Origin: Narcine bancroftii
Lineage: Eukaryota
Direction: 5' to 3'
Length of the DNA stretch: 64,000 bases
NCBI RefSeq assembly: GCF_036971445.1
Contig: NC_091470.1
Span: forward strand, 19,592,001 to 19,656,000
Shown one piece after another: positions 29,001-32,000 of the stretch. The position numbers were made by a program, and so were the translations under genes. The notes under the pieces were generated by a model. The model saw only the letters and a program-made list of their open reading frames with translations. It did not search any database and was not told the DNA's origin. Each line of letters begins with the position of its first letter. The stretch's first letter is position 1.

Positions 29001-32000
29001 CTTGAAGCATCTGTGTGTTGTAAAACTTTCTATATGCTGGTCAGTATTTATGGCAAAGGCAGCTCTTCTGGTTTTAGGGGTATTACTGTTGAATAAATTA
29101 AACTTTTGAGAAGACGTTGGAGGGGAGAGTCATTTGGACCATCCATTTCTATTATTTGATGGGTCAGTGTGTTGGAAAATATTGGAAAGTGTGTATAATT
29201 TTCTATACTCTAGAGCAGGGGTGTCAAACTCAAATTCACGGAGGGCCAAAATTAAAAACTTGGACTAAGTCGAGGGCCGAACTAAATATTTATTGATAAT
29301 TTTCAACAACATCTGCATGTTTTCTCTTCTTTCCACATATGTAATGTTAAACTTTTTCTTATTAAAATAAATGTTTAATAATAGTTTTGGATAAACTCTT
29401 TCACTGTCATTGGCCCATTTCCTTTGGAGATCTGAAACCGTGCACATGACGAGTCAATGAGGGATGATTAAAGCAGTGGTCTTCTTTCCACCCACAGACC
29501 ACCTTAAGCAATCCCTTACTAATCACAGAGCACCAATGGCACAGGGACGCGAGTGGAAAGAAAAAGGTTGAGAACTGTTGTATTGTGGTAACTCCACATC
29601 TGATTAGGTTAATTGTTAGGCAAGTGGTCAGAGAAGGACCCCTCCCCCCCCACCCCAAGAAAGGCTTAAATCACAGGAACAAAATAAGCTTCCGTCTCAC
29701 TGCTCCCAATCTTACACACAGTCCTGATGTGGAATGTGGGGTCGCAGCTCCACGTTCACCCGAGTTCAGGTGCTGTCTGTGTGGAGTTTGTACGCTCTCC
29801 CCTTGTCTTGGACCAACAGGTCAGTCGCCTGACGAAGGCACCCGAACCCCCCCCCCCCCCCCCCCGTTGAAACGTCGGCGTCCGGGGCGGTGGAGGAATT
29901 GGCTGAGAAGAGCGCGTTCCTCCCACCCCCCTCCCATGGTTGGAGAGGGATTAAACTGCGATCTCACGGCGCCAGGCTCGTCTCCAACAAAAGGAGCGGG
30001 AGGCAGGGTCCGCCGCGCACGGAGCGAGGGGGAAGGCATCGCCAACGAGACATTCGGTCCGGCGTCGCCGCTGAAGCGCAGACCCAGCGAGGATGGTCCC
30101 CAACTCCATCCGCGTCTGTGTGTCCGGGAGCCAGGCGGGCTGAGTGCGGCGCTCCGATCCCCGGGATTCGGGACTCTGAGATCCCTCCACACCTCCGGCG
30201 TCTTCATTTTCACCTTCAGTGTGCATGCGCTATACTGGCGCGGCGGCCAGCGGGCCAACTCTAATATATATTTAATATGATCTTGCGGGCCAAATATAAC
30301 TATATCCCGCGGGCTAGAGTTTGACATGTGTGCTCTAGATATTTCCATAGAAAATTGGTAGCATTCCTCAAACTCCCTTGAACATTTTGTATACCAAGTG
30401 GCAATGGATTTGTGAGGGAAAGAAATCTTCAGAAAGTCTGCACTGGCCAAACCCTATAATTTTTATTTTGGATGGGGAATGGAGATATTTATTGCTTGAC
30501 TTGCACCATCAGACAGATGAGTATTACATGGAGATTTTTTAAAAAGGAATTTTGAGAAGATTTTATAGATATTCAGGGATTGAAATTATTGTTTTCAGAC
30601 ATAAATATAAACTGTTGTCTGTGTTGGGATAACAAAAAATATTTCATAAATGACTTTCTTCCTCTGGAGAACTTCATGCCAAAGGATATGAAATTACTAA
30701 AGAATTATTTAATCTGAACTTGCATAGTAAATTCTATACTCCTCTACAACATGGAGGATTTTGTTCATCAAAAAAAGTAAATGGTTCTGTTCAAGTTGAG
30801 CATATTAAATATTCATTCACCAAAATATGTTGAGTGTTCTGAGATGTTTCAGGATTACAAATCACACCTACTTTAATCTTTTTTTTAAAAAGTGAAGATG
30901 TACTATAATTAAGTTGGAGATGTTGAGACGTGTTGAGTCTGGGCTGATTGATTCATGAAGATATCAGACTTGTAGATTGTTTTATTTGTTTTGGAGCATT
31001 TTTATGGTTCAGTTAGTAAATATTCATGAGCTGTACTATTGAGCCATTCGTTTCAAATTTAGTCAATTAATTTTGTTATGCTGTTTAGCACATCAGGCTG
31101 CTGTTGGTTCCAATATTATTGATATTTAGAAGTACAAATCTTTCTGAATACCTGCGTTCCAGCTTATTATTTCTGGTTTCTGGTGTGAAATGTTATTAGG
31201 TTGCAGGGTTTGTGATCTACCTTGCAGTTAAATGGCCAATTGATATTCACAGCGAGTGTTTGCGCGTGGATTTCTTTTGTAGGTGTTGAAGGCTGACCAA
31301 TAACTCTGCAGTGTAGAAAATGAGGGGATGGGCAAGGCTTTTTAAAAGAGTGATGTTAAAATAGATTATTCTTCAGCATTATTGCTAATCCTTTATTGCA
31401 ATAAATAGCATTTGTGGTGTCTGGAAATGAAACTGAAATGTTGGTAGAGTCGGAAGAAGCACTTCTTAATTGAGGATATGATTACACTCTATCACAGAGA
31501 AAAAGCAACTCCATATGTTGTGTGACATGGTGTTTCTCACACCTCATCTTAAAGACTAATACAGTTTGACAGTTGACTTTGCCTTGGGTAAGACAATCTG
31601 TTTATCCTTGAAAGTTAAGATTGAGGGTAGAACTTGTTTGGTCTGTTAACTATATATAGGCCAGAGGTAATCCATGTTAATTTGCTAATTTGACTATTGC
31701 TTCATTACAGTTAACTGAAAAGACACGTTCAGCTCTTGAGAAACAAGTCTGTCAGAAGGTTGCAGCAGCTATGCCTGTTCGAGCAGCTGAGAAACTAGCC
31801 CCTGCACAGTACATCAGGTTAGAAGCAGTTTTTAATGAGTGGAGTATCCCAATGCGGTCTTGCATTTACTGCTTATGAGATGCATGATCTGACTGCACGT
31901 TTCCTCCATGGAATGAACTCAACCTGGCTGATACGAGTTCTGTTAAACAGGGAACACAGGAAAGCAGCTCATAGATTCCTTCTACGTAGCAAAAATCTTT

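Follow-up and report, generated by a model that had tools for sequence, protein, structure and literature searches.

TIR transposons of plants and animals can take up host DNA, and how they acquire it is still disputed, with gap filling, FoSTeST, end bypass and neighbouring insertions as the proposed routes. The animal survey of Tan et al. 2021 (PMC8277862) counts 370 Pack-TIRs, 208 of them hAT; four are given as multicopy in reference genomes, and the cases it presents are almost all single-copy. Pack-hAT-N8_XT of Xenopus tropicalis, described in the same survey, has three copies (PMC8277862). In plants, work on Pack-TYPE and Pack-CACTA elements has led to a neighbouring-insertion model (Catoni et al. 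2019, PMC6379663; Gisby and Catoni 2022, PMC8903248). Among vertebrates, hobo_AC elements of Anolis carolinensis incorporate genomic DNA and amplify (Novick et al., PMC3014272), and bat Helitrons carry host promoters and UTRs (Thomas et al. 2014, PMC4224331).

The window that we analysed, a stretch of 64,000 nucleotides of Narcine bancroftii (contig NC_091470.1, positions 19,592,001 to 19,656,000), contains one copy of a hAT family, named A here, that can be set beside these systems. We lean towards reading its history as serial capture of host DNA by a vertebrate hAT lineage through compound transposition, with the donor, a TIR-retaining intermediate (the compound family X) and the products of deletion and recombination all preserved. 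A CpG island would thereby have reached about 400 or more sites, and a CpG-rich cargo bearing a splice donor more than 1,200, making this an animal case of the plant neighbouring-insertion model at copy numbers far above those of catalogued multicopy Pack-TIRs. Capture by animal TIR elements is already known; what is notable here is the copy number and the preserved pedigree.

As in Pack-hAT-N8_XT, hAT ends surround host DNA, the TIR-less parent lies on another chromosome, TSDs are distinct, the joint shows microhomology and the cargo is GC-rich; against the three copies of that family, we count at least 176 plus 217 junction matches (PMC8277862). Unlike the FoSTeST cases of Tan et al., ours includes an intermediate with an intact inner TIR, which points to a two-element route (PMC8277862). 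With the plant Pack-TYPE elements it shares two elements in the same orientation mobilised as one with the intervening DNA after loss of an inner end (PMC6379663, PMC8903248), as well as fused AB-type elements and large hAT clusters (PMC8903248). It differs from them in its vertebrate host, in the one inner TIR left intact in X and in the identification of the donor and of both product families (PMC6379663, PMC8903248), and also in a cargo without a demonstrated coding-gene fragment (PMC8903248). The hobo_AC elements are likewise vertebrate hATs that take up DNA with older TE fragments, recombine between copies and amplify, whereas here the donor locus and the capture joints are resolved and the cargo includes a CpG island (PMC3014272). 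The bat Helitrons offer another DNA transposon that amplifies regulatory-type sequence in a vertebrate, but by rolling-circle capture instead of TIR cut-and-paste, and with reported contributions to transcripts (PMC4224331). In the openly accessible literature on Pack-TIR, Pack-TYPE, Pack-hAT and hAT capture in cartilaginous fish, we found no vertebrate capture described with both a donor and a TIR-retaining intermediate. Because both are available here with both joints readable, in a field whose animal survey holds almost only single-copy cases (PMC8277862), the competing routes predict different alleles at one named locus. The features of the window on which the argument draws are as follows.

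567..1246, + strand: copy 1, a member of family E1, a 680-bp plain deletion derivative of an autonomous element, mapping to both ends and the ORF start of the near-intact parent L182
1456..1570, + strand: an old, short MITE of the hAT type, a relative of the one carried in the cargo (local matches of 80-89% to the MITE of the donor)
28802..28897, + strand: SNW1 coding exon upstream of the element (phmmer to PDB SNW1 chains, E 6e-12; splice sites read from the sequence)
29208..29215, + strand: left TSD copy, 8 bp, 7/8 identical to 30333-30340
29216..30332, + strand: one copy of family A, a Pack-type non-autonomous hAT element with a consensus of 1129 bp (genome search and junction matches)
29216..29402, + strand: 187-bp arm with TIR, the 3' end of the parent transposon (95% to copy 1, 93.6% to L182)
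29403..30223, + strand: cargo A, one contiguous block, very probably captured from the donor G000:C22:61,052,606-61,053,555 (minus strand)
29403..29575, + strand: the end, cut at the joint, of an older and abundant hAT MITE; this pre-existed in the donor, where it is longer and contiguous (74-83% matches in the flanks of L011, L019 and L029)
29766..29809, + strand: SINE-core-like fragment, pre-existing and collinear in the donor (82-85% to window 12063-12106 and 36557-36595)
29846..30223, + strand: CpG-island segment of the cargo (GC 0.67, 38 CpG, CpG o/e 0.91)
30220..30223, + strand: 4-bp microhomology between donor and right arm at the capture joint (from the donor, inner-arm and outer-arm sequences)
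30220..30332, + strand: outer right arm with TIR, from a second element, 129 bp in the consensus with a 16-bp deletion here
30333..30340, + strand: right TSD copy, 7/8 identical to 29208-29215

The element sits in the intron 3' of the SNW1 exon, and we saw no link of the family to a gene and no use of it as an exon. It is a member of a high-copy family and not a one-off: family A is a young, passive, high-copy non-autonomous hAT. All 40 scored matches of a genome search with the element (2811 candidates) cover at least 1084 of its 1117 bp at 90-100% identity, and the arm-cargo junction has 176 exact matches in the genome, which is a lower bound on the number of copies. At non-CpG positions the 30 best copies diverge from the 1129-bp consensus by 1.13%, at CpG positions by 7.1%; these figures are low estimates because the closest 30 copies were used. 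TSDs agree at seven or more of eight positions in 28 of the 29 copies having both ends (30 examined), scored with the right end free to shift by a few bases and with a chance probability of about 6e-4 per position tried. They vary between copies and most have a central TA, which we take to be a Charlie/Buster-type preference.

The original prediction had set this element beside copy 1 as sharing its asymmetric termini, its arms and 8-bp TSDs, and it was right in all three respects. Both asymmetric ends are common to the two, which lie in opposite orientation; one arm aligns over 187 bp at 95% and the other over 127 bp at 82%, counting the 16-bp deletion, which is private to the window copy of A. 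The TSD of copy 1 (559-566 and 1247-1254) matches at 8/8 positions, against 7/8 for the family A element. The transposase remnant claimed for copy 1 also exists, as about 30 codons of the N-terminus. Copy 1 represents a family separate from A, of the same age: all 40 scored matches to E1 are full length at 96-100%, and 20 copies diverge by 0.96% at non-CpG and 8.4% at CpG positions. Families A and E1 both derive from a 3205-bp element of the L182 type. This autonomous-type parent has a TSD, its transposase frame spans 603 codons interrupted by one stop, and both element ends match it, the short TIRs being common with a transposase-bearing element. Its transposase contains a Pfam Spin-doc zinc finger above the cut-off and DUF4371 below it, and has 1247 homologues, the best at 82%, named GTF2IRD2-like, with ray proteins among the near named ones; the parent transposon belongs to the GTF2IRD2-like hAT group. 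At the L182 locus (G000:C1:407.67-407.68 Mb), about 750 bp of foreign DNA lie upstream of the transposase, part of them presumably LINE-like. Another family, C, is a deletion derivative of L182.

The interior of the window element had been described as a patchwork, ending at 30221, of a MITE piece from about 29474, a SINE core piece, poly-C runs and a CpG-dense segment. The pieces are present, but the interior is a single block that was already mosaic at the donor and was not assembled in the transposon, and it ends at 30223. The MITE piece begins at 29403, as the cut end of a longer old MITE, and matches window 1481-1525. The SINE-core-like piece is where it had been placed, at 29766-29809, its label as a SINE not being a repeat-library assignment. 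C-runs also occur in the donor; the long one at about 29850 is a 13-base expansion private to the window copy. The CpG-dense segment stands as claimed at 29846-30223, with its o/e of 0.91 against 0.23-0.32 in the flanks of the element.

The prediction had also called for a donor locus lacking the TIRs, and one exists on C22 for the whole interior, which supports the proposal that this family captures and moves genomic DNA including a CpG island. The donor (minus strand) is identical to positions 1025-1963 of the X consensus at 924 of 950 columns; its alignment with the window cargo has 838 columns, with 25 mismatches (about 806 aligned bases) and 4 gaps. It was found with a pattern made of the right end of the cargo without the arm, a direct DNA search being swamped by copies (40 scored of 1128 candidates). 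This pattern has four matches, two in family copies with small indels and two at C22 that lie 1 kb apart, and the uniqueness of the donor rests on this single junction pattern, with two of its four matches at the C22 locus. Donor similarity begins precisely with the octamer next to the inner TIR of X and ends at the 4-bp microhomology with the arm. The octamer occurs once in the donor, inside the old MITE, which continues intact leftward; beyond the microhomology the donor passes into non-repeat sequence. MITE end, SINE-like piece, C-runs and CpG island follow one another in the same order as in the cargo. Barring one weak 28-bp match, no transposon arms were found within 60 kb of the donor. 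Contigs from two public runs match its non-repeat flank exactly.

The CpG island of the donor is isolated, no other among 120 bins (500 bp each, over 60 kb) exceeding both 0.55 in GC and 0.6 in o/e, and its composition fits that of a promoter CpG island, for which it is a candidate. No coding fragment was found in the cargo when one of several donor frames was compared with longer proteins only (0/3232 candidates passed), no exon-like frame was recognisable by ORF listing in the 60 kb around the donor, and the repeat-dominated contigs of presumed-RNA runs over both donor regions contained no splice joint tied to the cargo. One run of another organism covers the older repeats and not the CpG cargo, missing cover that is not evidence of absence.

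Measured against the definitions of Tan et al. 2021, the element has 821 bp of internal non-transposon sequence, within the range of 100-5000 bp, and the C22 donor is an unlinked parent of similar length with at least 90% identity. It fails the two filters of that pipeline, a unique top match and a parent with no TE nearer than 100 bp, because hundreds of copies outrank the donor and the cargo begins inside an old MITE. These filters would exclude family A (PMC8277862), which limits its listing in a catalogue and not its mode of action. More generally, families whose amplified cargo resembles a transposon consensus and outranks the donor are easily missed.

Ten loci carrying the CpG segment were fetched, and comprised seven copies of family A (the window copy included), two of the longer X and one truncated X form. 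The X consensus (2088 bp) consists of a complete 1024-bp element, B, with both TIRs, the octamer, the cargo and a second right arm; after the inner TIR come 939 bp of donor DNA, the 8-bp target-type octamer counted in. Both ends were present in 28 of 30 X loci fetched, and all 28 had the identical octamer after the inner TIR, a uniformity that is partly selection, the loci having been retrieved with a junction-spanning query. TSDs agree at seven or more of eight positions in 23/28. The inner junction has 217 exact genome matches, a few counted twice in tandem copies, and X is present at about 200 or more sites. Positions 1-187 of the A consensus equal X 1-187 at 100%, and A 188-1129 equals X 1148-2088 at 99.6%; A is X minus an internal 960 bp that included the inner TIR, the same deletion that shortened the 187-bp arm now seen at 29216..29402. 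At X1242 the donor base is kept in 26/28 copies of X and in only 8/30 of A, which gives the order donor, X, A, a polarity for which this is the one informative site found.

Two elements contributed to X, since its outer and inner arms differ at 5/129 positions; from the arm of family C the outer arm differs at 1/129, and its type is that of family C and of L182. Arms in direct repeat would be predicted to recombine unequally, with which a tandem expansion of the cargo inside an X copy with a TSD (L189) and B-length elements carrying the outer arm (6/20 loci) are in keeping, although the latter could instead be an old B variant and not collapsed X. Another locus, L190, has a tandem array of cargo A plus arm like that of L189, its end not confirmed. 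A further X copy, L033 (G000:C16:315,892-318,327 region), has lost exactly the inner element B. Its joint has 4-5 bases of microhomology between the left TSD and the inner octamer, and the empty site of its host repeat is seen in three other copies; this suggests that the inner TIR stayed usable, or that the site was repaired by microhomology.

That the DNA came from this donor itself and that A then arose from X we hold with high confidence. The route by which it was taken up was probably that of two neighbouring insertions, a microhomology deletion of the left part of the second and transposition of the whole unit. Element B would first have inserted in an 8-bp target that lies in the old MITE of the donor locus. 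At a distance of 0.94 kb or more beyond it, a second element, from a different subfamily, would have inserted in the same orientation and then lost its left end and interior through a deletion at the 4-bp microhomology. The TSDs show that transposase then moved B, the target, 939 bp of donor and the right arm of the second element together, as the 2.1-kb unit X. Finally, as the consensuses show, the 960-bp internal deletion turned X into A, followed by renewed amplification. In agreement with this route, the ends of two elements in direct orientation flank host DNA in X, and the left joint of X consists of a TIR and an intact target site with no microhomology, as transposase leaves it. The donor allele of this assembly is empty, with neither insertion and no excision footprint, and the first two steps therefore need an allele since lost or repaired. 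The second element itself, whose original site is not among the sequences seen, would be represented by the outer arm. In L154, an element B with its TSD occupies the identical octamer of another copy of the old MITE. The same 8-bp site of the old MITE, or one nearly identical, was entered by young members at L029, L079 and L154, and is probably a hot spot for insertion.

Template switching, by gap filling or FoSTeST, is a possible though doubtful origin of X. Synthesis would have started at the end of B, copied the donor and, at the 4-bp microhomology, switched back to an ectopic right arm; transposition would then have carried the product elsewhere, with the same donor and the same later deletion from X to A. 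The empty donor allele without footprint is what this predicts, the microhomology of the right joint fits it equally well, and the presence of B in the same octamer of other old-MITE copies, as in L154, offers homology for the switch; FoSTeST is the route that Tan et al. prefer for multicopy Pack-TIRs (PMC8277862). The locus has itself undergone at least one such event: the left end of the old MITE contains an inverted 72-bp templated copy of the donor-form right junction (G000:C22:61,053,588-61,053,659; L096, L097), at a distance of 33 bp from what later became the target site. Yet the cargo lies outside a complete element and begins at a TIR plus an intact target without microhomology, unlike filler within a single element; immediately past the octamer the sequence is already specific to the donor and does not follow the flank of L154; and the outer arm still requires a second element. 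These points make us prefer the neighbouring insertions. The older repair event that left the 72-bp copy touches both ends of the later capture.

It is very unlikely that the C22 sequence is an arm-less derived copy or a conversion tract, with the true donor elsewhere or lost. One-ended or truncated copies do occur (L033, L114), the junction pattern was built to find arm-less sequence and no public-run contig bridges the donor junction, but both arms are absent at exactly both joints, the old MITE runs on at the left and the donor has the ancestral base at X1242. Moreover, the inverted junction copy has the donor form and is diverged at 5/72 positions (7%), compared with about 1% in the families, so the donor arrangement predates them; the CpG changes of the donor, fewer (4/110) than those of X or A copies, are suggestive only. 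Least credible of all is the alternative, named with the original prediction, that no host DNA was captured and that the interior is either a usual non-autonomous consensus or a set of independent later insertions. Older TE sequence does make up about a quarter of the cargo, and the interior is indeed a fixed subfamily consensus. But a single TIR-less locus with a non-repeat flank holds all the pieces in the same order, which leads us to reject nested insertions; none has its own TSD in the element, and the MITE is cut at the joint.

The preserved CpGs had been taken to suggest a recent event or an unmethylated state. The first stands: the window copy still has 61 CpGs, where the consensus has 68, and owes this to its young age. 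An unmethylated state of the copies is rejected, given CpG decay 6-8 times that of other sites. CpG sites diverge by 7.1-8.75% (A 7.1%, X 8.75%) against 1.0-1.1% elsewhere, a loss 6.2 to 8.4 times faster, and the copies would seem to decay as methylated germline passengers. The donor has changed at 4/110 CpG positions and at 10/706 others. Its CpG retention compared with X and A gives Poisson P values of 0.004 and 0.04 and Fisher values of 0.05 and 0.18, not significant, and hints at low methylation at the donor. The hundreds of CpG-island copies in introns and intergenic DNA represent potential raw material for new promoters, none of them shown to act as such.

Element B has a foreign interior of its own; part of this is CpG-rich, and a canonical splice donor can be read from the sequence of the minus strand. 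A 32-mer of this interior occurs 1244 times in the genome. Further relatives include family C, a family F of 740 bp (193 matches) and B variants of greater length that contain a minisatellite; in one copy of family C, L156, a GC-rich 21-bp minisatellite has expanded to about 750 bp. Three junction patterns (3, 18 and 6 matches) yielded no established donor for cargo B, leading to family variants, to the unrelated L186 and to one candidate, L114 (G000:C9:225,838,689-225,840,409). This locus carries a long B-type cargo and a right arm, and its left arm is absent exactly at the cargo joint; the break falls at the arm-cargo microhomology, and there is no left arm within about 60 kb. It lies 18 kb from a complete copy in opposite orientation, and its CpG decay (8/112) is like that of ordinary copies (10-13 of 109-118). 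L114 is a candidate for the donor of cargo B with one end attached, or else may be a truncated copy. Within the window, two more kilobases are CpG-rich, 16001-17000 and 55001-56000, with o/e of 0.88 and 0.82, and 56001-59000 has a high GC content with few CpG.
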